Shown in pieces: positions 2,961 to 61,685 of a stretch of 64,000 nt of DNA. The stretch is taken from NCBI GenBank assembly GCA_964487255.1, contig CAZAQV010000002.1:211561-275560 (forward strand). The letters are read 5' to 3'. The notes beneath the pieces are model-generated. The model worked only from the letters and a program-made list of their open reading frames with translations, ran no database searches and was not told the origin of the DNA. Source of the DNA: an uncultured Polyangiales bacterium. Lineage in GTDB: Bacteria > Myxococcota_A > Polyangia > Polyangiales > CAZAQV01. Numbering within the stretch: the stretch's first letter is position 1; every line of letters starts with the position of its first letter. Both the position numbers and the translations under genes were made by a program.

Positions 2961-3034
2961 CGATGTTTGATTCTTGCGGGGAAAGCTTCGCTCACTCGTG
3001 CGCGGGGCCCCACCCCTAGCTAAAGCGTCGACAA

Positions 3035-3178
3035 GCTCGTTTGCTAGCCTTTGCTCCGGTCAGCGATTTTGCACATCGCAAAATCGGACCTGCTCAAAGA
3101 GCGCTCATCGCAGACTTACGGCTCTTCGGCTCTCGCTGGCCTCATCGCGAACTTCACTGTCCACGGTAGCCTCATCGC
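3035..3178 (+). repeat. Structured intergenic repeat, copy E1 (subfamily A)
   Basis: The element has a 5' box GCTAGCCTTTGCTCCG (3043-3058) and a hairpin CGATTTTGC/GCAAAATCG (3064-3086). Its 3' box is CTCAAAGAGCGCTCATCGC (ends 3111). Two more CTCATCGC units follow at 3141 and 3171. Confidence 0.6.
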
Positions 3179-4360: not shown

Positions 4361-4884
4361 ATCGTAATCGGCAGACGAAGCACACTAAGATCTGCGCGTG
4401 GTTCGCCGTGGGCGGGGGCGCGGCATCGGCAACGTTCTGCCTGTTCGGTTTGAGTATTGTGATGCTCCAGAAGGTCTTCATGGGTCTCATGCCTGCCGAG
4501 GCAGAAGGCGCTCAACTCGACCAGTTTCGATCAATGATGCTGAGCCTGCACACTCTGTGGCTGATCTTCATGCCCATCTGGATCGCCCTTGGCATCGGAC
4601 TCGTGATCTTTGGGCTCAAGATGCGCAATCAAGCTCGGTTCGGGCGTCATGTTGCGATCCTTTGTGCGGCGGGCCTGGCGGCCTTCGTTCCCTACATGTG
4701 GATCGCCACCACTGACTTCCTGCCACAGTTCGCCGAAGGGCATCCAATGATGGGCAAAGACGCGGTGCTTCCGTTTGCCATCATGCAGATCATTTCAATG
4801 CTCCCTCTCGTTATCGGAATTGCACTGTTTGCTTTCTGGGCATGGCGCATAGGCTCCAAAGCTCAGGTATCGAGGTCGGCATGA
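4357..4884 (+). CDS. Hypothetical integral membrane protein (about 4 TM segments)
   Basis: Four hydrophobic stretches are visible (FAVGGGAASATFCLFGLSIVML, LWLIFMPIWIALGIGLVIFGL, VAILCAAGLAAFVPYMWIA, ISMLPLVIGIALFAFWAW). The GTGA overlap with the upstream gene and the ATGA overlap with the downstream gene indicate coupling. Confidence 0.6.
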   Translation: MNRNRQTKHTKICAWFAVGGGAASATFCLFGLSIVMLQKVFMGLMPAEAEGAQLDQFRSMMLSLHTLWLIFMPIWIALGIGLVIFGLKMRNQARFGRHVAILCAAGLAAFVPYMWIATTDFLPQFAEGHPMMGKDAVLPFAIMQIISMLPLVIGIALFAFWAWRIGSKAQVSRSA

Positions 4885-11107: not shown

Positions 11108-11482
11108 ATGATCAGTCCCCGTATCGCCGAACCGTTTTTGTACGCCATCCTTCTCGCGCTCGCTCTTGCCTGCACGCAGAGCACGTCGCCCAGCTCAAGC
11201 GGCCTCGGACTGAGCGACGACGATGACGCCCCGGATGTGTCTGAGTTTGGCGACGAAGATGACGAGGCCGATGACGCCGACGAGGCCGATGGCGCCAATG
11301 ACGCCGACGAAGCCGATGACGCCGACGAGGCCGATGACGCCGATGACACCGACGAGACCGACGAGGCCGATGACACCGACGAGACCGACGAGGCCGATGA
11401 CACCGACGAGGCCGACGAGGCCGATGACGGCGAATGTGATGACGACGTAGACTGCGACGACGGCGATCAGCTCATCAACTAA
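11108..11482 (+). CDS. Acidic tandem-repeat lipoprotein
   Basis: AGGAGG lies 6 nt upstream of ATG 11108. The N-terminus is MISPRIAEPFLYAILLALALACTQS (lipobox). About 70 residues are D/E/A/T repeats (DTDETDEAD x3, from 27-nt DNA repeats). The protein ends GECDDDVDCDDGDQLIN. Confidence 0.65.
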   Translation: MISPRIAEPFLYAILLALALACTQSTSPSSSGLGLSDDDDAPDVSEFGDEDDEADDADEADGANDADEADDADEADDADDTDETDEADDTDETDEADDTDEADEADDGECDDDVDCDDGDQLIN

Positions 11483-24311: not shown

Positions 24312-24907
24312 GGTCTAAGTTCCTTTCGCAGATCGCGCTCCAGCGAAGCCATACCTTCATCGTCATTGCGATAATACCCCCGGATGGTCGCCGTTGGATC
24401 CACGAGCACAAAATGTGTGGCGTGCAGGATATCGTACCCCTTTTCTCGCGCTTGCTTCTCGCCGATGGCCACTTTGAAACCTTGCTGGGCAACTTGCCCA
24501 ATCTGCCGCGTGTCTCCGGTCAAAAACCACCAGTTGTCGTGCTTTGCCCGTTGCTCCACGGCGTAGCGGCGAAGCACTTTGGGCGTATCGACCTCGGGGT
24601 CCACGCTGATCGAAACGAACTGAACGCCTTCTCCCAGGTCCTCTAGCTTTTTGTGGAGCGTCACTGCCCGTGAGGTCATGACCGGACACACGCTTGGACA
24701 GGATGTGAAAATGAAGTTCGCAACCGACCATTTCCCTCGCAAGCGCTCTACCGTAAAGGGTGTGTCGTTCTGGTCCACAAGCCCAAGCGACTGCACCTGC
24801 GAGAGCCTCGGCAAAGCCGGCTCCTGGCGGTCGCAACCCACCAAGCCAAGAGTCATCGTAACGACAAAGAACGGCGCCAGACGCCGCGATGAGCGTGCGG
24901 AGCCCAA
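24308..24907 (-). CDS. SCO1/SenC copper chaperone lipoprotein
   Basis: FIFTSCPSVCP is the CxxxC motif and HATHFVLVD is also family-typical. The TTG at 24907 gives (M)GSARSSRRLAPFFVVTMTLGLVGC, a good lipoprotein signal. The longer track ORF merely reads through the tandem repeat. Confidence 0.75.
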   Translation of the reverse strand: MGSARSSRRLAPFFVVTMTLGLVGCDRQEPALPRLSQVQSLGLVDQNDTPFTVERLRGKWSVANFIFTSCPSVCPVMTSRAVTLHKKLEDLGEGVQFVSISVDPEVDTPKVLRRYAVEQRAKHDNWWFLTGDTRQIGQVAQQGFKVAIGEKQAREKGYDILHATHFVLVDPTATIRGYYRNDDEGMASLERDLRKELRP

Positions 24908-25053
24908 ACAAGCCGATTTGCTACTTGCAAATCGCTGCTTGTGACGCGCTGCCGTGAAGAGCCGTAAGTTCAGCCGCGATGAGCGTGCGGAGCCCAAACA
25001 AGCCGATTTGCTACTTGCAAATCGCTGCTTGTGACGCGCTGCCGTGAAGAGCC
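24883..25053 (-). repeat. Structured intergenic repeat, copies E2a/E2b: perfect 81-bp tandem duplication
   Basis: 24883-24963 and 24973-25053 are identical, separated by 9 nt (90-bp period). Read on the minus strand: GGCTCTTCACGGCAGCGCGTCACAAGCAGCGATTTGCAAGTAGCAAATCGGCTTGTTTGGGCTCCGCACGCTCATCGCGGC. Confidence 0.85.
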
Positions 25054-25058
25054 ATGAG

Positions 25059-25961
25059 TCAGCGGGCATCGAGGAGGAGGACCGCAAAGAAAATCGGAAG
25101 GTAGAACAGCGAAACCACGAAGACGCGCCGAGCCCAGCGATCGTCCATGTCGCGCCACAAAGCAGGCAGGCACACCGCTGTGTAGGCCATGCCCAAAACC
25201 AGCGAAGTCACGGCATAGATCCAACCAGCCGTCCCGAAAAAGACGAGCGAGAACGAGATCGGCAAAAGCGACGCCGCCCAAACCGTCGCATGCACGGCAG
25301 AAAGCCTGTCACCCGCAACCAACGGCAATACACGCATCCCCGCGGCGGCATACTCGTCACGACGAAACGACGAGATCGCGATGACATGTGGAATCTGCCA
25401 AGCGAAAAGCACACCGAAAAGCGAAATCGCGGGCCAACTGATCTCATTCGTCGCGGCCGACCAGCCCATTAGTGGCGGCAGCGCTCCCGGCACAGCGCCC
25501 GCCAACACGGCCGTCGGTGTGAGCGTCTTCATCGGGGTGTAGATCGCAACATAGGAAACGATGGCACCCACCCCGAGCCAACCGGTGAGCGCATTGACGC
25601 CAAAGAAAAGCACTGGCAGCCCGAAAAGCGCCAGGGCGATGCCGAACATAAGACCTGCTCGCGGGGTGAGTCGCGCGTCGGGAAGCGGACGCTTTTGGGT
25701 GCGCGCCATGAGGCGATCCAGATCGCGCTCGACCCAGCAGTTGAGCGCGTTGGCAGCGCCTACAATGAGCAACATGCCCACAAGCGTGGCTGCCACTTTG
25801 GCGGCGCTAACGCTCACGGGTGCGATCCACATGCCGCCGGCGGCGGTGATCAGCACCATCAGGCTCACGCGTGGCTTGGTCAGCGAAACGAGGTCGCGGA
25901 CCTTGTCTGCGAGCGACGAAGAGTCGCTCGCTCGTTCCGTCATCGTGCCGGCGTCCGCCAT
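25059..25961 (-). CDS. ctaB: Protoheme IX farnesyltransferase (heme O synthase)
   Basis: The protein is a UbiA-family polytopic membrane protein. Diagnostic segments are LTKPRVSLMVLITAAGG, NCWVERDLDRLMARTQKRPLP and WQIPHVIAIS. Confidence 0.9.
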   Translation of the reverse strand: MADAGTMTERASDSSSLADKVRDLVSLTKPRVSLMVLITAAGGMWIAPVSVSAAKVAATLVGMLLIVGAANALNCWVERDLDRLMARTQKRPLPDARLTPRAGLMFGIALALFGLPVLFFGVNALTGWLGVGAIVSYVAIYTPMKTLTPTAVLAGAVPGALPPLMGWSAATNEISWPAISLFGVLFAWQIPHVIAISSFRRDEYAAAGMRVLPLVAGDRLSAVHATVWAASLLPISFSLVFFGTAGWIYAVTSLVLGMAYTAVCLPALWRDMDDRWARRVFVVSLFYLPIFFAVLLLDAR

Positions 25962-26168
25962 CGGTGCCGAATCCTGGGGTCAGCGCCCCTTGGAGTCAAA
26001 CGAAAAAGCCTGCACTTTTCGCTACATACTACTTTGCTCCCCCTGCCCACGTGCCAATCTGTGCCAGCGCCTGACATGCGCACCCCACACATACCGCGGC
26101 CACGCAGCTAGAACACCCAGAAACACACTCGGTCCAGGCATGGTTCGCATTTTGCTTTCTTGCCTTGC

Positions 26169-26582
26169 ATGACGATTCAACAAACTTTGCTCTTCGCCGC
26201 GCTTTTTCTGAACATGGTCGCCTGTAGCTCCGACAACGACTGTCCAGACGAAGCCATCTGTGAGTGCTCCGGTAGTTTTGGCATCTCGCTGGAGTTTACG
26301 GGTGACATCCCAGAGAACCTTCAGATTCTCTGGGACGGCGAAGAGGTTGTCAATGACTGCACTGGAACACGCAACGTGGCTTACGATCGCGACGGCGCGT
26401 TGGTTGATCTACACCTCGTGAGTTTCGGCTACACGCCACCTGGCACGGCCTCACTCGTGGTCCGAGATCAGAAAGACTGTACCGTCAGCGAAGAAGAGCT
26501 TCTGGCGGTCAACGACGAACCCGTTCCAGATGGACCGTACGAGCTGTGCACCGACGCTGCAATCGGCTTCACCATCGACTAG
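26169..26582 (+). CDS. Small hypothetical lipoprotein
   Basis: ATG 26169 gives MTIQQTLLFAALFLNMVACSSDNDC (lipobox). No family was recognised. Confidence 0.5.
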   Translation: MTIQQTLLFAALFLNMVACSSDNDCPDEAICECSGSFGISLEFTGDIPENLQILWDGEEVVNDCTGTRNVAYDRDGALVDLHLVSFGYTPPGTASLVVRDQKDCTVSEEELLAVNDEPVPDGPYELCTDAAIGFTID

Positions 26583-26641
26583 CAGCAACGCGTTTGCTTC
26601 CGCGCTCTGCGGCAGTGGACGGCGATGAATCGTCGTTGAAC

Positions 26642-39426: not shown

Positions 39427-39915
39427 CTACGGGCCGAGAATCTTCTCGATATCTTGGTGGATCTTGTCGGTTTTGACCTTGCGGGCCAACGCCAGCTCCG
39501 AAATCAACAGTGACTCCGCCTGCTCAAGAAGACGGCGCTCACTAAAGCTGAGCTCCTTGTCCGACTTGAGACGGTAGAGGTCACGGAAGACCTTGGCGAC
39601 CTCAAAAGGGGAACCGCTGTTGAGCATCTCGTTGTACTCGCGCTGTCGACGATTCCATGGCTGCGACTTGACCGCCACTTCATCGGACTTGAGCACGTCC
39701 ATGACCTTTTTGACGTCATTGCGGGAGATCACGCGGCGAAGCCCCATCCGCTTGGCTGCGTCGACCGCCACAATCACCGTTCGAGACTTCTTTTCAAGCG
39801 TCTTGATGATGTAGAACTCGGTCTTGTTGCCCGCTATTTCCTTCGCTTGAACCGCACTGACTTCGCCCACGCCATGGGACGGATGCACTGCATAATCTCC
39901 GACCTTAAACTTCAT
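39427..39915 (-). CDS. carD: CarD/CdnL-family RNA polymerase-binding transcription factor
   Basis: ATG 39915 gives MKFKVGDYAVHPSHGVGEV... The protein is 162 aa, with a C-terminal ...SFSERRLLEQAESLLISELA. Confidence 0.9.
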   Translation of the reverse strand: MKFKVGDYAVHPSHGVGEVSAVQAKEIAGNKTEFYIIKTLEKKSRTVIVAVDAAKRMGLRRVISRNDVKKVMDVLKSDEVAVKSQPWNRRQREYNEMLNSGSPFEVAKVFRDLYRLKSDKELSFSERRLLEQAESLLISELALARKVKTDKIHQDIEKILGP

Positions 39916-40013: not shown

Positions 40014-40091
40014 GGCTCTTCACGGCTCCGCGTCGCAAGCACCGATGTGGTTATACCACATCGGCTTGCTTCGTCTGCGCACGCTCATCGC
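40014..40091 (+). repeat. Structured intergenic repeat, copy E4 (subfamily B) between recA and carD
   Basis: Sequence is GGCTCTTCACGGCTCCGCGTCGCAAGCACCGATGTGGTTATACCACATCGGCTTGCTTCGTCTGCGCACGCTCATCGC. Its flanks are near-identical to E2. The hairpin stem is different but still fully paired (CCGATGTGGT/ACCACATCGG). Confidence 0.65.
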
Positions 40092-40109: not shown

Positions 40110-41252
40110 TCAAGCCTGTGCGCGGGCGCGACCGTTGGCCGACGAGGCCCCGTTTTTCTTAGCCTTCGCGGAGCCACTCTCGTCGCTCTGCGAGGCGGCT
40201 TCTTGAGTCTCGGGGGCTTCGAGCAGGCCGTGCTTGATAAGCAGTTGTTTTTCAATATCTGCAAGCATTTCCGGATGCTCCTCGAGGAAAGAGCGCGCGT
40301 TATCGCGGCCTTGGCCGATACGATCGCCGTTGTAGCTGTACCAAGAGCCTGATTTATCAATGATTTTGTCCTCGACACCGAGGTCAAGGACGTCCCCGGT
40401 CCGGCTGATGCCGTGGCCGTAAAGAATGTCGAACTCGCAGGTCTGAAAAGGTGGTGCGACTTTGTTCTTCACGACCTTGACCCGTGTCCGGTTGCCGACG
40501 GCTTGGTCGCCAACTTTGATGGTGCCAATCCGGCGAATGTCGAGGCGCTGCGAGGAGTAAAACTTGAGTGCGTTACCCCCGGTCGTGGTCTCTGGGCTGC
40601 CGAACATCACACCGATCTTCATGCGGATTTGGTTGATGAAAAAGAGTGTGGTGTTGCTCTTATGAACCGTTGCGGTGAGCTTGCGAAGCGCTTGGCTCAT
40701 CAGACGCGCTTGAAGACCCACGTGACTGTCACCCATTTCGCCCTCGATTTCTGCCTTTGGAACGAGCGCAGCCACCGAGTCGATGACAATGAGGTCGACC
40801 GCGCCAGAGCGCACGAGCGTGTCCGCGATTTCAAGGGCCTGTTCACCGTGGTCAGGCTGAGAGACGAGCAGCTCGTCGACGTTGACCCCAAGCTTTCGGG
40901 CGTAGATCGGATCGAGCGCATGCTCGGCATCGATGAAAGCCGCAACGCCACCCTTCTTTTGGCACTCGGAGATAGCGTGAAGCGTAAGCGTCGTTTTACC
41001 GCTCGACTCCGGCCCATAGATTTCGACGATGCGCCCACACGCATAGCCCCCGACACCAAGCGCCAAGTCGAGCGAGATGGACCCCGTCGAAATGGTGGGG
41101 ATGTTGCGAACCGCGGCCTCGTCGCCAAGACGCATGATAGCGCCTTTTCCGTAGGCCTTTTCGATGGTGCCGAGCGCCAAATCGAGCGCTTTTTGCTTGT
41201 TGGAGTCGGTGTTGACGGTCTTGGATGCTGACTTTGTGTTGGAGCGGCTCAT
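40110..41252 (-). CDS. recA: Recombinase RecA
   Basis: Diagnostic segments are [15 protein letters not shown] (Walker A), VIDSVAAL and [28 protein letters not shown]. The protein is 380 aa, with N- and C-terminal extensions. Confidence 0.97.
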
Positions 41253-41292: not shown

Positions 41293-41369
41293 CTGTGTAA
41301 ACGTTCAGTGCCTGGTGTATCGCAGTTTTTCCAAGGGGTGGCAAGAAAAAAGATACGTCTGTTCAGTGC
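41293..41369. promoter_or_regulatory. Two GTTCAGTGC-containing boxes upstream of recA (candidate LexA/SOS boxes)
   Basis: CTGTGTAAACGTTCAGTGC (41293-41311) and AGATACGTCTGTTCAGTGC (41351-41369) lie 41-117 nt upstream of the recA start. They resemble the GTTCAG-containing LexA box described for Myxococcus. Confidence 0.3.
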
Positions 41370-41450
41370 GGCAGAGTGTGATGCACAAGCGGTTGGGGAG
41401 GCTTAGCACCTGAGCCACAAGAGAGGTGAATTGTTCGCTCCGATCAATCA

Positions 41451-41539
41451 AATTTGTGGAGCTACCACAAATTCGATTTCGATCTGCGCCTGTCTTCTTG
41501 CTCTTCGGCCAAGACATCTTCGCTGCGCACGCTCATCAC
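41451..41539 (+). repeat. Degenerate copy (E5) of the structured repeat between cinA and recA
   Basis: A hairpin AATTTGTGG/CCACAAATT (41451-41473) is followed by ...GCTCTTCGGCC... and GCGCACGCTCATCAC (ends 41539, overlapping the cinA stop). The similarity to E4 is weaker. Confidence 0.35.
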
Positions 41540-42789
41540 GAACGGGTGGCGCGCGCGACGAGGTGAAGCGCGATGTAGGCTGCAAGCTTCTGAATGCGTG
41601 TGCGATCACCCGGCAAGACTTTGTGTTTGGTGACGATCGACGCGCCGTCCGCGCGTGCAACAGCGAACCACACCGTGCCCACGGGTTTGGTTTCGGTCGC
41701 GCCACCGGGCCCCGCGATGCCCGTCACCGAGACCGCGACGTCCGCTCCCGAAACACGAAGCGCGCCTTCGGCCATCTGCACTGCCACCTCTTCGCTCACC
41801 GCGCCGTGCGCGCGCAAGGTGTCTTCGCGCACGCCGAGCAGCGTCGTCTTGGACGCGTTCGAGTAACACACAGCGTCCATCAGCAAGTAGTCGGAGCTGC
41901 CGGGTATCTCGGTCAACATCGCACCGATGAGCCCGCCCGTGCACGACTCAGCGACCGAAAGCGTCCAACCCCGGTCTCGAAGCGCACGTCCGACGAAGCC
42001 GGCGAAGCGCTCGTCGCGACCGCCGTAGACGTGTTGACCCAATCGCTCGCGAAGCTGTTTTTCAACTTTGCCACACAACGCCTCTACGCTCTGCCACGCA
42101 GCAGCCGTCATGGCGGTACGGTCTGCCTTGATCTTGAGTTCGATCTCGGGAAAGTGGACGCGATAACCGAGGGTCACGCCGGGAAACGCGGCCTCGATGT
42201 CTCGGAGTTTGTCGGCCAGCTCCGACTCGGGAAGCCCGAAGGTACGGAGATGAAGTTGATAGGACGTGCGCTCGGTCAGCGGAGCGAGAAGCGGCTCGAT
42301 TTCGTCGGCGAAGATGCCCTTCATTTCGCGTGGCACGCCGGGCAGGCACACGATCAACGTGTCCCTGTGTTGGACACGAAAGCCCGGCGCGGTGCCATGT
42401 CGATTCGTGATGATCTGCGCGCCACGCGGGAAGAGTGCCTGTCGTTCATTAGACTGCGGCATGGGTCGACCACGTGCGCCCCAGCGTCTGCGAATCGCCT
42501 CCAGACTCGGTGGGTCGATGGCGAGTTCGGCACCGATGAGCTGCGCAACCGCATGGCGCGTGAGGTCGTCGCTGGTCGGACCCAGCCCACCGGTGGTGAC
42601 GATCAGATCGACGTCTGCACAAAGGCGCTCGAAGGCCTTGCCCATCACGTTCGCCTCGTCTTCGACGGAGACGTGTTCGACGACGTGAAACCCAAGCGCG
42701 GTGAGCGCTTCACCCAACCACGCGGCATTGCTGTTGACAAGTTCGCCGCGGGTCACTTCCGTCCCGATGGTAAGCACAGCGGCGCGCAT
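41536..42789 (-). CDS. cinA: Competence/damage-inducible protein CinA (with PncC-like domain)
   Basis: ATG 42789 gives MRAAVLTIGTEVTRGELVNSNAAWL. TTGGLGPTSDDLT is family-typical, and the C-terminal part has SVAESCTGG and GTVWFA. Confidence 0.9.
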   Translation of the reverse strand: MRAAVLTIGTEVTRGELVNSNAAWLGEALTALGFHVVEHVSVEDEANVMGKAFERLCADVDLIVTTGGLGPTSDDLTRHAVAQLIGAELAIDPPSLEAIRRRWGARGRPMPQSNERQALFPRGAQIITNRHGTAPGFRVQHRDTLIVCLPGVPREMKGIFADEIEPLLAPLTERTSYQLHLRTFGLPESELADKLRDIEAAFPGVTLGYRVHFPEIELKIKADRTAMTAAAWQSVEALCGKVEKQLRERLGQHVYGGRDERFAGFVGRALRDRGWTLSVAESCTGGLIGAMLTEIPGSSDYLLMDAVCYSNASKTTLLGVREDTLRAHGAVSEEVAVQMAEGALRVSGADVAVSVTGIAGPGGATETKPVGTVWFAVARADGASIVTKHKVLPGDRTRIQKLAAYIALHLVARATRS

Positions 42790-42856
42790 GACGGGCTCAC
42801 ATAACGCGGAAACGTTCGATTTGCCAGCTATCCGAGGGTGGCAGTCGGTGGCCCAC

Positions 42857-42888
42857 AAAAAAACGCGGCCTCCGTCTGGAAGCCGCGT
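42857..42888 (-). terminator. Rho-independent terminator after the Cys-rich lipoprotein gene
   Basis: Minus-strand reading is ACGCGGCTTCCAGACGGAGGCCGCGTTTTTTT: a GC-rich stem followed by a T7 run, about 25 nt after the stop at 42913. Confidence 0.6.
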
Positions 42889-42912: not shown

Positions 42913-43476
42913 CTATCCGCCGCAGTTATCGCCTTCGAATGAAAAGCCCGAGCAGACGTCAAAGGCCTCGTAGCAACCGGAGTCACAGCGACACTGAATA
43001 CATTGGTCGGAGCCCGGATCGGCGATGCACTTATCCAAGCAGAACTCGCTGCCACAGTTGGCGCTCACGCCATAGCAGTAGCCGCAGCCGTCGGTGATGT
43101 CTGCGTCGGTCGCCTTCACGGCGTCGCGTACACAGTTACGGAACTTCTCGTCGTCTCCTTCGGAGGTGCCAAAGCAGGCGACGGCATTGTCGCTCGCTGC
43201 GGTAGCGGCTGCGTTGGTGTCGAAATCGAGACCATCACATTGGTTGGGGTCACCGGTGTAATATCCGGTCGATGCGTCGGCGGTCGATGCGTCGTCAGCC
43301 GATGCATCGTCAGCCGATGCATCGTCAGCCGATGCGTCGTCAGCCGATGCGTCGTCAGCCGATGCGTCGTCCACCGTCGCGTCGGTGCCCGAGTCGGTTG
43401 TGCCAGGATCATCATCATCTCCGCAGGCGGCAAACCCCGCGAGACAGAAAGCCAGTAGGTACATGTGAATCTTCAT
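42913..43476 (-). CDS. Cys-rich lipoprotein with DDASA tandem repeats
   Basis: The N-terminus is MKIHMYLLAFCLAGFAACGDDDD (lipobox). DDASA is repeated six times (15-nt DNA repeat). The C-terminal domain has 14 Cys residues. Confidence 0.65.
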   Translation of the reverse strand: MKIHMYLLAFCLAGFAACGDDDDPGTTDSGTDATVDDASADDASADDASADDASADDASADDASTADASTGYYTGDPNQCDGLDFDTNAAATAASDNAVACFGTSEGDDEKFRNCVRDAVKATDADITDGCGYCYGVSANCGSEFCLDKCIADPGSDQCIQCRCDSGCYEAFDVCSGFSFEGDNCGG

Positions 43477-48210: not shown

Positions 48211-48239
48211 AAAAGCCCTCCACCCGGAGGGCTTTTTTG
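48211..48239. terminator. Bidirectional rho-independent terminator
   Basis: AAAAGCCCTCCACCCGGAGGGCTTTTTT has an 8-bp GC-rich stem with an A-run on one side and a T-run on the other. It lies between convergent genes. Confidence 0.75.
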
Positions 48240-53315: not shown

Positions 53316-53316
53316 G

Positions 53317-53379
53317 TCTCATTCGGGCCCCGGCTCCCATTGAGACTGTCTCATTCGGGCCCCGGCTCCCATTGAGACT
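53317..53379 (+). repeat. Tandem pair of identical 31-nt hairpin units
   Basis: TCTCATTCGGGCCCCGGCTCCCATTGAGACT occurs at 53317-53347 and 53349-53379. Each unit can pair AGTCTCA...TGAGACT. The pair begins right after the GT2 stop codon. Confidence 0.85.
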
Positions 53380-55698: not shown

Positions 55699-57819
55699 AT
55701 GGGATTCCACGCAATTCGTTTGACGCGACGCCCCCAGGGCAACTCCACCACCGGCTCGCTTGCGATTCTCGCAAGTGTGGGTGTCTTGGGGATCGCTTCG
55801 TTCACGCAGTTCGGGGCTGCCCTCGAAGAGAACGTAAAGGGCGAGACTCAGGCAAGTGCGTTCGCAAACCCGGACGATGGGGAGATGGCATTCAACTCGC
55901 CCAGTGAAAGCGCTCAGACGCCCAACGTTGAACTCGGCAGCAGCTCGTCTGCAGCGATCGATGGTGGCATCGCCAACAACCTGATCGACTACGTCGCGGG
56001 CAAAGGTTCTCGTCCATCCCAAATCCCTGCAGGCTCCGATGCCGATGAGTTACTTGATGAGGTGCTCAAGGCCGTCAAAACATTGGTCGGTGACGACACG
56101 GCAACAAAGAATGCCGTCACCACGGCACTCAAGAATAACCATGGCGATCTCGAAAAGATCCTCTTCGAGGGTATCAACGACATTAACGACGTAAGCGAAG
56201 AGGTTCGAACTGCGATCCTTGAAGGAATTGGCAAGCGAATCGCGGACGGTGAAGGCGTCGGTCTACTCGGCGAGATACTCGAATCACTTGAGAACCTTGG
56301 TCGGAACCTCGAAAAGAACCACGCCGCCGGTCGTGCAGAACTACGCAAAGTGCTCCGCGGTGAATCGATCGCCGATGAACCGGCCGCAGACGAGCCCAGG
56401 GCCAACACGCCGGCTTCGGATGACGCGAATACGGCAGACGAACCTACTGCGGATGACACGAGTGCGACAAACGAACCCGCTGCGAATGATACCAATGCGG
56501 CAGACGAACCTACCGCGGAACAACCGGCAGTCGAAGACTCAGACCAAGCTGGCGCTGGAGCGCTCGGGGCAGAGGAAACGGGCAAGGCGATCCTCGATGC
56601 CATCAACGCCAACCCCGAGGCCTCAGCGGCTGCGGCAACGCTGCTCGAAGATCCTGAAGTGATCGAGCTGGTGAGCGACGCCGCCAGCGGCAAGCTCAGC
56701 CTGGACGCGAAATCCATCATTGAGCTGCTGCGCGACAAGCCTGGCATCGTGGCGGTGCTCGAGGCGCTCGTCAAAGACAAGAAGGTGATGGCCCTACTGG
56801 AGAGCCAGGTCGATCCGCAGTTCCTGCCGCTGCTCAAACTCCTAGCCGCCAACCCGGACATCGTCGAGAAGATCGCCGGTTTCGTGCGGGGCGCAAGCCC
56901 GAGCGACATGGACGCACTGCTCGGCATCATCGATGCCGCGCAAAACGGAAGCTTCGATCCTGTTACCGACTTGCCCAAAGTCTTGACGCTTCTCGGCAAT
57001 GACCAGCTGATGGGTTTGGTCCGGGAACTGAGCCAAAATGAAGACGCGCTGGCCCTCGCTTCGCAGTATGTTCCGCCCGTCTATCTGCGGGTCATCCTGG
57101 AGCATCCGGAACTTATCCAAGACGTGAGCAACTACTTGCAAAATGCATCACAAGCCGAACTCGCGCTCGTCGCAGAGGTCATGAATGATGCGCGGAATGG
57201 CGAATTCAGCCTGGGGAAGGCCATGGAGCTGCTGCTCAACCCCGGCGCCTACGACCTGGTGAACAAGCTCTGGGATAGCGAAGCGGGACGCGCAGCCATC
57301 ATCGACTCGATCAAGGCATATGCTCCGGGAGGCCGAATCTGGGGCCCGATGCTTGGCTGGCCCGTCATCAACCGTTTCGTTCCGTCAGTGGCTCGCTTCA
57401 TCGGTCTACGCAACCGCGTTGGAACATGGAATGCGATCAAGATGACGTTCAACGGTTGGCTCACCAACGTGACGGGACAAGAATGCTCCGGCATCTTCAA
57501 CATGTGCCGCGTGCGCCAGGCGGGGGGCCTGTTCGCTGCCGGCGTGAAGAAAGTTGGCGGCTGGATCGGCGGCCTGTTCGGCGGCGGCGACGACGAACCA
57601 GCGAAGGCGGTTGGTACCACAGCACGCGAGCCCGTCACGACTGAAGGCACTCCGATGACACCAAGCGCTGGCGATGGGCCTTCGAGTGCAGCGCCCGCAA
57701 CGGTTGCGGCAAACCTACCCCCCGTTTTTGGCTATACGCCCGCGTTCCCAGGCTTGCTTCAACGCCAAATGATGCGCATCGCTGCGGAGCGCTCCCTCGA
57801 GAGCGCACCCAACGACTAG
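55699..57819 (+). CDS. Large secreted/membrane-associated helical-repeat protein, unknown family
   Basis: The protein is 706 aa. An N-terminal hydrophobic segment (LAILASVGVLGIASF) is followed by acidic ADEPTA-type repeats and long helical Leu-rich repeats. The tail is Gly-rich (GGWIGGLFGGGDDE). Confidence 0.6.
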   Translation: MGFHAIRLTRRPQGNSTTGSLAILASVGVLGIASFTQFGAALEENVKGETQASAFANPDDGEMAFNSPSESAQTPNVELGSSSSAAIDGGIANNLIDYVAGKGSRPSQIPAGSDADELLDEVLKAVKTLVGDDTATKNAVTTALKNNHGDLEKILFEGINDINDVSEEVRTAILEGIGKRIADGEGVGLLGEILESLENLGRNLEKNHAAGRAELRKVLRGESIADEPAADEPRANTPASDDANTADEPTADDTSATNEPAANDTNAADEPTAEQPAVEDSDQAGAGALGAEETGKAILDAINANPEASAAAATLLEDPEVIELVSDAASGKLSLDAKSIIELLRDKPGIVAVLEALVKDKKVMALLESQVDPQFLPLLKLLAANPDIVEKIAGFVRGASPSDMDALLGIIDAAQNGSFDPVTDLPKVLTLLGNDQLMGLVRELSQNEDALALASQYVPPVYLRVILEHPELIQDVSNYLQNASQAELALVAEVMNDARNGEFSLGKAMELLLNPGAYDLVNKLWDSEAGRAAIIDSIKAYAPGGRIWGPMLGWPVINRFVPSVARFIGLRNRVGTWNAIKMTFNGWLTNVTGQECSGIFNMCRVRQAGGLFAAGVKKVGGWIGGLFGGGDDEPAKAVGTTAREPVTTEGTPMTPSAGDGPSSAAPATVAANLPPVFGYTPAFPGLLQRQMMRIAAERSLESAPND

Positions 57820-61556: not shown

Positions 61557-61685
61557 GGCTCTTCGCTAGCCTTTGCTCCGAACCAGCAATCTGCTGATAG
61601 CAGATTGGGTTCTCACAAAGAGCGCTCATCGCGTCGGCCACCAGGAGCGCTCATCGCGTCGGCCACCAGGAGCGCTCATCGCGTT
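61557..61685 (+). repeat. Structured intergenic repeat, copy E3 (subfamily A) with 25-bp tandem expansion
   Basis: GGCTCTTC plus GCTAGCCTTTGCTCCG (61565-61580) precede the hairpin CAATCTGCT/AGCAGATTG (61587-61607). CTCACAAAG follows, then AGCGCTCATCGCGTCGGCCACCAGG in 2.6 tandem units (61621-61685). Confidence 0.7.

Follow-up and report, generated by a model that had tools for sequence, protein, structure and literature searches.

Proteobacteria, Firmicutes and mycobacteria are well-known hosts of small interspersed palindromic repeats, and those REPs that carry a GTAG tag are mobilised by RAYT/TnpA-REP. In Enterobacteriaceae and Pseudomonas, the REP/BIME repeats are short, extragenic, multi-copy and gene-less, and are built as a bulged imperfect palindrome; their subfamilies differ by complementary stem changes, and they often lie after genes or between convergent genes, assemble into mosaic clusters and vary between related genomes (PMC3733652, PMC2817692, PMC3184786). 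REPs favour head-head or tail-tail dimers, head-tail dimers being rare, and the CGTC REPs (Di Nocera et al. 2013) combine a CGTC tag with an 8–9 bp stem that starts with A-T pairs, a 4–5 nt loop and a CCA tail (PMC3733652). BOX of Streptococcus pneumoniae (boxA-boxB(n)-boxC) is a modular, non-autonomous element with a stable predicted fold that affects neighbouring genes (PMC3184786, PMC3049150). MIRUs, units of 40–100 bp, stand in tandem inside operons, carry open frames that overlap neighbouring genes and are absent from the homologous site in related species (PMC3184786).

The 78-base sequence that follows recA in the genome of an uncultured myxobacterium is a member of a family of small, gene-less repeats dispersed through that genome. 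We regard the family, with a probability of roughly 0.6, as a lineage-restricted, non-autonomous, non-coding, interspersed mosaic repeat of the broad class to which REP/BIME, BOX and MIRU belong, the hairpin of which is constrained as a single strand. The window, that is, the whole stretch of 64,000 nucleotides (64 kb) that was analysed, holds five full copies, one decayed copy and hairpin-less short forms, or 5–6 copies per 64 kb. A preliminary description had reported the repeat, and the sequences it quoted are present where it placed them. The copy after recA, here called E4, is laid out as follows.

40014–40091, plus strand: E4, full unit of subfamily A; 82.4 bits with covariance model R1, E 1e-20
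40015–40023, plus strand: 5' box of E4, GCTCTTCAC
40036–40040 with 40064–40068, plus strand: outer stem of E4
40041–40042, plus strand: bulge of E4, AC
40043–40051 with 40055–40063, plus strand: inner stem of E4, with its loop at 40052–40054
40083–40091, plus strand: 3' box of E4, GCTCATCGC

The five full copies in the window are 76–78 nt long and follow one order: a 9-mer box, a linker of 13–14 nt, a two-part hairpin, a second linker of 14–18 nt and the 9-mer box GCTCATCGC. The 5' box reads GCTCTTC(A/G)C, also written (Y)GGCTCTTC(A/G)C; it and the 3' box, which is the most invariant portion of the unit, are variants of a single 9-mer, GCTCWTCRC, in direct orientation. The hairpin consists of a 5-bp outer helix, a conserved 2-nt bulge (AG/AC) on the 5' side, an inner helix of 8–9 bp and a loop of 3–5 nt, so that every full copy embeds a bulged palindrome of 33–35 nt. 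Two subfamilies, A and B, have the boxes in common. The stems are flanked by ...CGTC(A/G) or ...GCTC(C) on the 5' side and by C/T on the 3' side; in subfamily A (E4, E2 and the copy in the related genome L144) CGTC stands one base 5' of the outer helix (CGTC-A/G-CAAGC), and subfamily B has GCTC there. A third, outermost helix seen in single-sequence folds was rejected, as it differs between the subfamilies and between E4 and E2. The remaining copies in the window are these.

24886–24963, minus strand: E2a, full unit of subfamily A, 79.1 bits; promoter-distal member of a tandem pair between ctaB and the SCO1 domain
24976–25053, minus strand: E2b, full unit, starting 5 nt past the ctaB stop codon
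24964–24975: 12-nt spacer between E2a and E2b, GGCTGAACTTAC on the minus strand, giving a 90-nt period
3034–3111, plus strand: E1, full unit of subfamily B, 71.9 bits, with a decayed 5' box, AGCTCGTTTGC
3112–3178, plus strand: tail of E1, made of the spacer AGACTTAC and then two short forms
3120–3148, plus strand: hairpin-less short form in the E1 tail, GGCTCTTCGGCTCTCGCTGGCCTCATCGC; 14.5 bits with the covariance model, boxes only
3169–3178, plus strand: GCCTCATCGC, the end of a second, decayed short form in the E1 tail
61557–61632, plus strand: E5, full unit of subfamily B, 89.4 bits
61633–61682, plus strand: two more 25-nt tandem copies of the 3' module, GTCGGCCACCAGGAGCGCTCATCGC, after E5
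41431–41539, plus strand: decayed, subfamily-B-like copy between cinA and recA
41499–41539, plus strand: hairpin-less short form, TGCTCTTCGGCC...CGCTCATCAC, behind the decayed hairpin

The copies listed in the preliminary description are borne out. Its end-to-end alignment of E4 with the element between ctaB and SCO1 holds, E4 and E2a aligning without gaps at 81% over 78–80 nt; that element had been taken for one copy (24883–24963), however, and is in fact two in tandem, 98–100% identical to each other (98% over 87 nt inclusive). The further copies placed at 3035–3178 and 61557–61685 are the full units E1 (inner stem CGATTTTGC/GCAAAATCG) and E5 (inner stem CAATCTGCT/AGCAGATTG, outer stem GAACC/GGTTC) with short forms or 3' modules behind them. 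The degenerate copy seen near 41451–41539 is the decayed copy between cinA and recA, in which the hairpin (41445–41479) is intact: CAATC, a bulged A and AATTTGTGG face CCACAAATT, a bulged C and GATTT. It scores 15.8 bits with the covariance model, through its boxes, and 30.3 bits with the hairpin model. The parts of the unit also occur in other combinations, with the whole unit doubled head to tail at ctaB/SCO1, the 3' module triplicated after E5, boxes without a hairpin in the short forms and, in the decayed copy, a hairpin whose boxes are eroding. All such arrangements in the window (E2b-E2a, E1 with its short forms, the E5 3' modules) are head-to-tail.

These copies stand well clear of chance. 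With the covariance model the five full copies score 72–89 bits (E 1e-18 to 1e-22), and the rest of the 64 kb reaches 16 bits at most. The box-gap-box pattern occurs in four copies, against 0.00 expected from shuffles, and GCTCATCGC occurs eight times in the window, against 1.6 expected. A hairpin-model match at 55953–55988 (22.9 bits) lies inside a long ORF, is without boxes and is attributed to chance. The 9-mer GCTCWTCRC itself has 19 matches (5.4 expected), and each locus carries two to five direct repeats of it, spaced 18–30 nt apart in the tails or 66–68 nt across the hairpin. Such figures, and the constancy of the 3' box, would suit an array of double-stranded binding sites for a nucleoid-associated or regulatory host protein, with the hairpin incidental. 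We hold that explanation to be very unlikely: 12 of the 19 matches fall inside elements and the seven outside are at chance level, and duplex binding has no need of the folded-strand constraint evident in compensatory changes at 12 of 14 stem positions.

It is in the hairpin that this constraint is most apparent. The hairpin is constrained as a folded single strand, its sequence drifting and its pairing being restored. Across the copies, 67 of 70 stem positions are Watson–Crick and none is a G-T wobble, compared with 51% Watson–Crick when arms from different copies are combined, and the true pairing of arms is better than all 119 other arm permutations. At least two pair types are seen at those 12 of 14 stem positions, a covariation drawn from 4–6 independent copies only. 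The inner helix has 92.9% of its cells paired (73.5% in shuffles), with none of 500 shuffles matching either the observed percentage or the covariation score; in slid controls the paired fraction drops to 22–42%. Both sides have changed in five of the ten inner-helix pairs, and one-sided change is seen in none. The stems had been described as unrelated in sequence yet complementary. Their complementarity is indeed maintained, by compensatory changes; the stems are nonetheless homologous, starting C(G/A)AT...AT(C/T)G, and the outer 5-bp helix and the 2-nt bulge belong to the structure as well. The proposal of a selected hairpin is thus upheld by the pairing counts and shuffles given above. Predicted stabilities run from -25 to -35 kcal/mol (z -1.9 to -4.6), that of E4 being -32.3 kcal/mol (z -4.0). 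From the exclusively Watson–Crick pairs we infer that the hairpin has to form from whichever strand is present, be it single-stranded DNA or an RNA read in one direction or the other.

Stable, conserved secondary structure in multiple copies might also be expected of a family of independently transcribed small RNA genes, a candidate named in the preliminary description, but this we judge highly improbable. No sigma-70-like promoter is found at any of four loci. Terminator-like sites are absent from E4, E5 and E1, and E2 alone has a weak match, with a GCTTGTTTGG tail. In Rfam 15, only two tRNAs in the window reach the gathering score, and for E4 and E5 nothing exceeds 13 bits at E up to 10. The copies sit tight against stop codons, the tandem pair lies inside an open frame, none of the 67 pairs is G-U, and copies occur in both orientations relative to transcription, as had been noted from the start.

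The gene context varies from copy to copy. E4 lies 18 nt past the recA stop codon and 7 nt upstream of a conserved carD promoter block; its reported position downstream of recA (plus strand) is right as to place, but recA is on the minus strand, and E4 is therefore antisense to recA/carD. E5, situated between convergent genes, begins 6 nt past a Ser/Thr kinase stop codon, and E1 is 73 nt downstream of tRNA-Leu(CAG). At ctaB-SCO1 the copies point the same way as a flanking gene, as does E5 relative to the kinase and E1 relative to tRNA-Leu, which makes three co-oriented loci. The antisense copies, E4 and the decayed one, nevertheless have the same boxes and the same bulge side.

At ctaB–SCO1 the claim that all copies are intergenic becomes doubtful, although the family is mostly extragenic. 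Starting at an ATG that overlaps the ctaB stop codon, a frame stays open across E2b and E2a and into SCO1; the 78-nt E2 unit and the 90-nt period are both multiples of 3, so that both copies are in frame with the SCO1 ORF. The repeat might then be protein-coding, either as an in-frame insert, as in the Rickettsia palindromic elements, which are translated in-frame inserts, or as a small ORF on the reverse strand, where E4 and E2 (subfamily A) each have a 22-codon frame from ATG to TGA (ATGAGC...TGA). The SCO1-linked frame is also kept in L144 despite a 6-nt difference in the spacer, and three of the five substitutions between E2 and L144 are synonymous third positions in that frame. For the family as a whole we give coding almost no credence. 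No frame is open in all copies, the reverse strand of E1 meeting a stop after four codons; the tail period of 25 nt is not divisible by 3; E5 is flanked by convergent stop codons; and an intercistronic open frame like that at ctaB–SCO1 is absent at E1, E4, E5 and the decayed copy. A protein search with concatenated six-frame translations of the elements gave no match. Third positions inside the element, moreover, are identical at 14 of 17 sites between E2 and L144, far above the 43.5% of ctaB, a conservation for which coding cannot account. As a local side effect, the E2 pair may be translated as an N-terminal tail of SCO1; an exact look-up of seven alternative SCO1 N-termini in protein records, aimed at the annotated start, returned none.

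Related genomes show the family both present and absent at orthologous sites, a variation that the preliminary description had marked for comparison. L115 (RecA 88%), which has the gene order in common, carries no element at either recA-carD or cinA-recA, although the adjacent promoter blocks are conserved. L144 (CtaB 83%) has a copy directly after ctaB, truncated by the contig end, and L142 and L143 (CtaB 84%) have unrelated sequence at the ctaB-SCO1 site; the L142 spacer was considered as a decayed element and rejected, its local alignment score of 22 comparing with 19.6 ± 3.8 for shuffled sequence and being equalled or exceeded in 121 of 500 shuffles. Two more distant relatives (41 kb) have no copy. 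It is from this presence and absence that mobility of the family may be surmised. No direct repeat is shared by the flanks of E4, E2, E5 and E1 as a target-site duplication, and the flanks of the empty L115 sites are too diverged to define junctions.

The L144 copy (4389–4440) extends the family beyond the loci first listed, which counts against its being confined to them, and its surviving stem is paired. It is identical to E2b at 47 of 52 positions (90%); the inner stem and the two surviving outer-stem positions are intact, three outer pairs having been lost at the contig end, and none of 23 stem positions has changed (P = 0.046). In the same comparison ctaB is 73% identical overall and, as above, far less so at third codon positions. 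A purely selfish element should decay, and conservation of the ctaB copy at 90% near synonymous saturation therefore argues for a function at the level of the host, or for a recent independent insertion or conversion.

Could the repeats, then, be host-selected, cis-acting RNA structures and not mobile DNA, placed in 3' untranslated or intercistronic RNA and recruited to stabilise the upstream message, to pause or terminate transcription, or to tune ctaB-SCO1 translational coupling? This we consider unlikely. Copies start 5, 6 and 18 nt past stop codons, the hairpins are very stable, the hairpin of the decayed copy is kept while its boxes erode, and the orthologous ctaB copy is conserved, with an unchanged stem, to the degree just described. 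On the other hand, E4 and the decayed copy are antisense with boxes and bulge side as elsewhere, only three loci being co-oriented with the flanking gene; a U-tract follows the hairpin only weakly, in E2; a relative as close as L115 lacks the element at recA-carD and cinA-recA; and no RNA role is obvious for the short forms without a hairpin or for the arrays of 3' boxes.

As a mosaic repeat of the REP/BIME, BOX or MIRU kind, the family would have its copies come and go in the course of evolution by means of a trans-acting function, encoded by a gene that lies outside the window. No transposase, Y1 transposase, recombinase or integrase domain is found among the roughly 70 ORFs of the window. 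By analogy with REP/RAYT and IS200/IS605, the trans factor may be an enzyme that recognises the bulged single-stranded DNA hairpin together with its flanking boxes. After insertion just past a stop codon, the hairpin could act on the flanking transcripts by protecting 3' ends or coupling cistrons, which would explain, at least for the ctaB-SCO1 copy, a conservation far beyond what neutrality predicts. A bolder version of this scheme, speculative and in our estimation rather improbable, would make the family the substrate of an unrecognised enzyme specific for single-strand hairpins, with the 5'-side bulge marking the active strand and the 9-mer boxes, 13–18 nt to either side, serving as cleavage or guide sites. 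The architecture would then be a new non-autonomous one, distinct from GTAG and CGTC REPs, IS200/IS605 ends and attC, with some copies retained by the host and the ctaB-SCO1 pair under strong purifying selection and possibly translated within SCO1.

Wider searches returned chance matches. In a genome collection, the loose pattern GGCTCTTC-N50-68-CGCTCATCGC matched at 114 places, each of them single, in unrelated phyla and lacking the hairpin of the family, and R1 found nothing at E<=1e-5 in the first 100 of these loci. A tighter degenerate pattern gave 26 matches in a metagenome collection, all chance and no further members among them, and an exact-box scan of a viral-contig collection produced box-only chance matches and no family members. 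At L123, from the metagenome scan, 30-nt tandem repeats with both box motifs proved to be a 10-residue coding repeat (AMSASEEPTT) beside an unrelated gene. L010, from the genome-collection scan, has box matches at 30-nt spacing, known from the box positions alone. Full-text searching of the literature, both for the box sequence and for Myxococcota REPs, yielded nothing relevant. The REP surveys consulted do not mention Myxococcus, Sorangium or Haliangium.

The family thus adds a repeat from a group, the Myxococcota, unsurveyed for such elements, and provides a clean case of structural constraint, in which the hairpin of a repeat, bulge included, is kept by compensatory change. It can serve as a marker for this uncultured lineage, and it accounts for the breaks at these sites in short-read assemblies of relatives. 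Annotators should be aware that repeat DNA is present at the SCO1 start and between recA and the carD promoter. Only one feature goes beyond the routine picture of a selfish repeat: an orthologous copy has stayed 90% identical although synonymous divergence is close to saturation.

How the family stands to described systems may be seen by beginning with the more remote. Intrinsic (Rho-independent) terminators differ from it in that no U-tract follows the hairpin, apart from the weak one in E2. With integron attC sites the family has in common the conservation of structure over sequence, a bulge whose extrahelical bases mark one strand and a site just past a stop codon. It lacks the inverse core sites (RYYYAAC / GTTRRRY), however, its boxes GGCTCTTC / GCTCATCGC being direct and not inverted; its neighbours are recA, carD, ctaB, SCO1, a tRNA and a kinase, in an order common to relatives, and the window has no integrase. 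Like the MITEs (Correia/NEMIS, RUP, ERIC), it is small, non-autonomous, mostly intergenic and foldable, with filled and empty sites among relatives, and at 78 nt is too short to hold a gene. Its ends do not form inverted repeats, as comparison of GGCTCTTCACGGC with the reverse complement of the 3' end, GCGATGAGCGTGC, makes clear, and with no recognisable target duplication either, the MITE candidate of the preliminary description, in its classical form, is not supported.

The ctaB-SCO1 pair, at 2 x 90 nt and with an open frame from an ATG overlapping the ctaB stop, is reminiscent of MIRUs; the other copies, by contrast, lie between convergent genes, after a tRNA or antisense, and MIRUs are not defined by a covarying hairpin. 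BOX, compared by description only, is similar in having conserved end modules and one internal or terminal module amplified in tandem, but its modules are 45–59 nt long and its fold comes from A/C complementarity, whereas the present family has a central hairpin and direct-repeat ends.

CGTC REPs resemble the family in their 8–9 bp stems and 4–5 nt loops, and we also list as likenesses that no dedicated transposase is known for them and that intragenic units exist (PMC3733652). The CGTC near the outer helix is a likeness of subfamily A only, where it stands one base away, subfamily B having GCTC. The stems of the family start C-G/G-C (inner) or C-G/A-T (outer) and not A-T, there is no CCA tail, the helix is bulged and in two parts (5 + 9 bp), and CGTC REPs have nothing that corresponds to the long conserved boxes. 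From GTAG REPs it differs in that no copy contains GTAG, hence no tag beside the stem, and in having no G-T pairs where GTAG REPs often do. A REP, moreover, is a bare palindrome of 20–40 nt, in contrast to the unit of 76–78 nt with two direct, non-palindromic boxes described here, and the family forms tandems that are only head-to-tail, with none of the inverted dimers of REPs/REPINs.

These differences apart, this family, like REP/BIME, is short, mostly extragenic, gene-less and, within the window, multi-copy; it has a bulged palindrome with complementary stem changes, several of its copies lie after genes or between convergent genes, and it is mosaic and variable among relatives. Among the candidates put forward at the outset, a REP/BIME-like element fits best, given the mosaic and tandem arrangement, the presence and absence among relatives and the lack of coding capacity. 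The family is a new one, but of an already familiar kind of bacterial repeat, REP/BIME-, BOX- or MIRU-like.

Hairpin-bearing repeat units of about 80 nt are scattered through the window in both orientations, and a read-out of the sequence returned the elements quoted in the preliminary description at their positions. The unit downstream of recA (E4, plus strand) and the element 3' of ctaB (minus strand) align without gaps over 78-80 nt at 81% identity. What had been taken for a single element at the ctaB locus is in fact two identical units, E2a and E2b, arranged head to tail with a period of 90 nt. A pattern consisting of the two end boxes alone finds four copies in the window and none in 100 shuffles. 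With filters off and both strands of the 64 kb searched, a covariance model of the unit built from four copies gives exactly five strong matches (72-89 bits), the runners-up (~15 bits) being the reverse strands of the same family hairpins and the short forms. Six of the ~18 different hairpins in the window with a perfect stem of 8 bp or longer are members of the family.

Copies of the repeat in the window
3034-3111 (+): E1, full unit
3120-3148: short form, both boxes without the hairpin, ~15 bits
24886-24963 (-): E2a, full unit
24976-25053 (-): E2b, full unit
40014-40091 (+): E4, full unit
41431-41539 (+): decayed copy in the cinA-recA gap
41499-41539: short form, both boxes without the hairpin, ~15 bits
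61557-61632 (+): E5, full unit
61648-61682: short form, both boxes without the hairpin, ~15 bits

Two subfamilies, A (E4, E2a and E2b) and B (E1 and E5), share a common plan.

Parts of the unit
5' box: (Y)GGCTCTTC(A/G)C, followed by a linker
Outer helix: 5 bp
Bulge: 2 nt on the 5' side, AG, but AC in E4
Inner helix: 8-9 bp, always starting C(G/A)AT and ending AT(C/T)G
Loop: 3-5 nt, followed by a second linker
3' box: (A/G)CGCTCATCGC

Both boxes are versions of a single 9-mer, GCTCWTCRC, in direct orientation, which occurs 19 times in the window against an expected 5.4, with 12 of the 19 inside elements. The modules of the unit behave independently of each other. Two extra 25-nt copies of the 3' module directly follow E5, two short forms follow E1, and the decayed cinA-recA copy retains the complete two-part hairpin, then a short form, its boxes eroded. 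Both tandem junctions have a spacer with ACTTAC as its last six bases; the unit ends carry no inverted repeats, and no flanking duplication is visible around the elements.

The same two-part hairpin is predicted for each copy, with an energy 1.9-4.6 SD below that of shuffles on either strand. The stems had been thought unrelated in sequence; they are homologous, E4 and E2 sharing the outer helix and six of the 8-9 inner positions. Compared position by position in five independent copies, the stems have Watson-Crick pairs at 67 of 70 positions within a copy, as opposed to 51% when the 5' and 3' arms are taken from different copies, and the true assignment of arms is better than all 119 other permutations. 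Two or three different Watson-Crick pairs are seen at 12 of the 14 stem positions, and G-T pairs are absent from the stems of these five copies. In a MAFFT alignment of six sequences, including a copy from a relative, 92.9% of inner-helix cells are paired, a value reached by 0 of 500 shuffles (73.5%), and sliding the partner column lowers pairing to 22-42%. Five of the ten inner-helix pairs have changed on both sides and none on one side only, in a sample that is small and in which an inserted T-A pair, shifting the register, accounts for part of the variation in E1 and the decayed copy. Even so, pairing has clearly been restored after sequence change. Because there are no wobble pairs, both strands fold equally well, which, together with the constant side of the bulge, would suit a hairpin recognised as single-stranded DNA, or one functioning as RNA whichever strand is transcribed.

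On the evidence of RecA, CtaB and the genes around them, the window belongs to an uncultured lineage of Myxococcota. Among named relatives, Polyangiales/Myxococcales MAGs come closest (RecA ~80%, CtaB 50-60% identity), with only one to three closer relatives in the collections. E4 is 18 nt past the recA stop codon and antisense to that gene, since cinA, recA and carD lie in this order on the minus strand.

Genes around E4
41536-42858 (-): cinA
40110-41252 (-): recA
39427-39915 (-): carD

E2b begins 5 nt after the stop codon of ctaB, with which it is co-oriented, and E5 begins 6 nt after that of a Ser/Thr kinase gene, filling with its tail the 146-nt gap up to a convergent glycosyltransferase-like gene. 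E1 lies between tRNA-Leu(CAG), 73 nt upstream, and a lipoprotein-like gene; this tRNA (plus strand) forms a divergent pair with tRNA-Gly(GCC) (minus strand) at 2710-2961. Four element loci were scanned for promoter-like sites, with none found, and for terminators, with a weak match at E2 only. Elsewhere, a hairpin of 11 perfectly matched base pairs at 48211-48236, between convergent M16 peptidase and VWC-domain genes, is flanked by runs of A and of T (AAAAGCCCTCCACCCGGAGGGCTTTT) and has the appearance of an intrinsic terminator working in both directions; the genome does, then, use canonical terminators, in contrast to the repeat family.

Other repeats also occur in the window. At 53316-53379 a 32-nt unit (GTCTCATTCGGGCCCCGGCTCCCATTGAGACT) is present twice in tandem without a mismatch, taking up most of a 76-nt gap between two glycosyltransferase genes; the ends of this unit are inverted (GTCTCA...TGAGAC), and it is unrelated to the hairpin family. 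Long tandem runs inside ORFs at 11206-11480 (9 nt, GCCGAYGAS-like) and 43255-43399 (15 nt, CGATGCRTCGTCAGC) are presumably low-complexity coding repeats, as their periods are multiples of three.

The analysis covered the 64 kb of the window and about 60 kb from related genomes. In L115, a contig from Logan SRR24956019 (RecA 88%), cinA-recA-carD is present with no element: the recA-carD spacer is 33 nt as opposed to 104 nt in the window, and conservation restarts 7 nt from the edge of E4 at TCGCGTTGACGC, the carD promoter block. The cinA-recA site of L115 is empty too, with the recA promoter ~85% conserved. Two CACTGAAC-containing motifs upstream of recA, CACTGAACAGACGTAT and CACTGAACGTTTAC, which we take to resemble the myxobacterial LexA (SOS) box, are conserved between the window (41297-41368 (-)) and L115 (3150-3225). 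At ctaB, contig L144 (SRR24956251; CtaB 83%) carries a copy directly 3' of the gene (4389-4440; 30.9 bits, E 4e-7), cut by the contig end 52 nt into the unit, as would be expected if the repeat is multi-copy there and breaks short-read assembly. L142 and L143 (SRR30765336/8; CtaB 84%) have after ctaB a stretch of similar length, the similarity of which to the element is no better than chance. The three CtaB lineages are roughly equidistant. Contigs L145 and L146 (RecA 80-83%; 41 kb, same gene order) hold no copy. Judged from these filled and empty sites, the family is limited to a narrow clade, with gain or loss at individual sites.

Exact-box scans of metagenome and viral-contig collections returned no real family member. 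One match, a 30-nt tandem repeat with both box motifs (GGCTCTTCGCTGGCGCTCATCGCGGTTGTC) on an unrelated G+C-rich contig (L123, 50-160), reads on the reverse strand as a 10-residue coding repeat (AMSASEEPTT) and was rejected as a chance likeness. Another contig (L010, 7086-7209), on which the 3' box recurs at 30-nt spacing, is known from box matches alone and may hold the same kind of repeat.

The ctaB copy can be set against its neighbouring gene. Window and L144 ctaB are 73% identical in DNA (83%, 93% and 43.5% by codon position), the last value indicating that synonymous sites are near saturation. The element after ctaB is identical at 47 of 52 positions (90%); its five substitutions all fall on unpaired bases, leaving the 23 stem positions unchanged (P = 0.046), and the spacer from the ctaB stop codon is not conserved (5 nt in the window, 11 nt in L144). 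A neutrally decaying relic of a selfish insertion would no longer be alignable at this distance. The conservation may reflect either nucleotide-level purifying selection on this copy or a recent renewal of the copy, by conversion or re-insertion, in each of the two lineages.

Protein coding offers another reading at this locus. A stop-free frame starts at an ATG overlapping the last ctaB codons (25069-25067), reads through E2b and, beyond the spacer, E2a, and continues into the SCO1 domain, yielding two 30-residue repeats (LFTAARHKQRFASSKSACLGSARSSR...). A ctaB-overlapping ATG opens an SCO1-ward frame in the window (24780-25087 (-)), L144 (4367-4440) and L142 (1804-2517) alike. Translation fits several observations: the 78-nt unit and the 90-nt period are both multiples of three, the L144 ATG enters the element in the same frame despite a 6-nt longer spacer (MPASQFSWLFTAARHKQRFADSKS against MPADSWLFTAARHKQRFASSKS), the called SCO1 gene of L142 begins at the corresponding ATG, and three of the five E2-L144 substitutions are synonymous third positions. 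SCO1 may thus carry a basic N-terminal tail encoded by the E2 pair; alternatively, SCO1 may start at a TTG inside E2a, which would give a textbook lipoprotein signal, MGSARSSRRLAPFFVVTMTLGLVGC. As a rationale for the whole family, coding was rejected: every reading frame is interrupted in at least one copy, and third positions of the element are conserved at 14 of 17, far above ctaB. On the other side of ctaB, the prs-ctaB gap (25962-26641) is longer in the window (680 nt) than in L144 (92 nt) or L142 (134 nt). The additional sequence holds a small opposite-strand gene (ORF 26160-26582 (+)), the product of which has a lipoprotein-type signal (MTIQQTLLFAALFLNMVAC...) and matches no Pfam family.

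Small interspersed repeats of the REP/BIME, BOX and MIRU types serve as the comparison class (PMC3184786, PMC3733652, PMC2817692). The family is not a MITE, as it lacks terminal inverted repeats, nor is it an attC site, a terminator or a described RNA family; its elements have no Rfam match even at E up to 10. Among the ~70 ORFs of the window there is no transposase, recombinase or Y1/HUH domain. Most likely, copies would be dispersed by a trans-acting enzyme recognising the single-stranded hairpin and boxes, and those retained would exert a local effect, as RNA or DNA hairpins beside gene ends.

Like REP/BIME, BOX and MIRU repeats, the family is short, gene-less, mostly extragenic and found in both orientations, with two subfamilies, arrays that are mosaic or tandem, sites that are filled in some close relatives and empty in others, and a covarying bulged hairpin. 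It matches neither the GTAG nor the CGTC REP super-family as defined: it has no GTAG, it has CGTC close to the stem in subfamily A alone, its stem starts differently, and its dimers are head-to-tail. On these grounds we class it as a new small interspersed-repeat family, of the known REP/BIME-, BOX- and MIRU-like kind.
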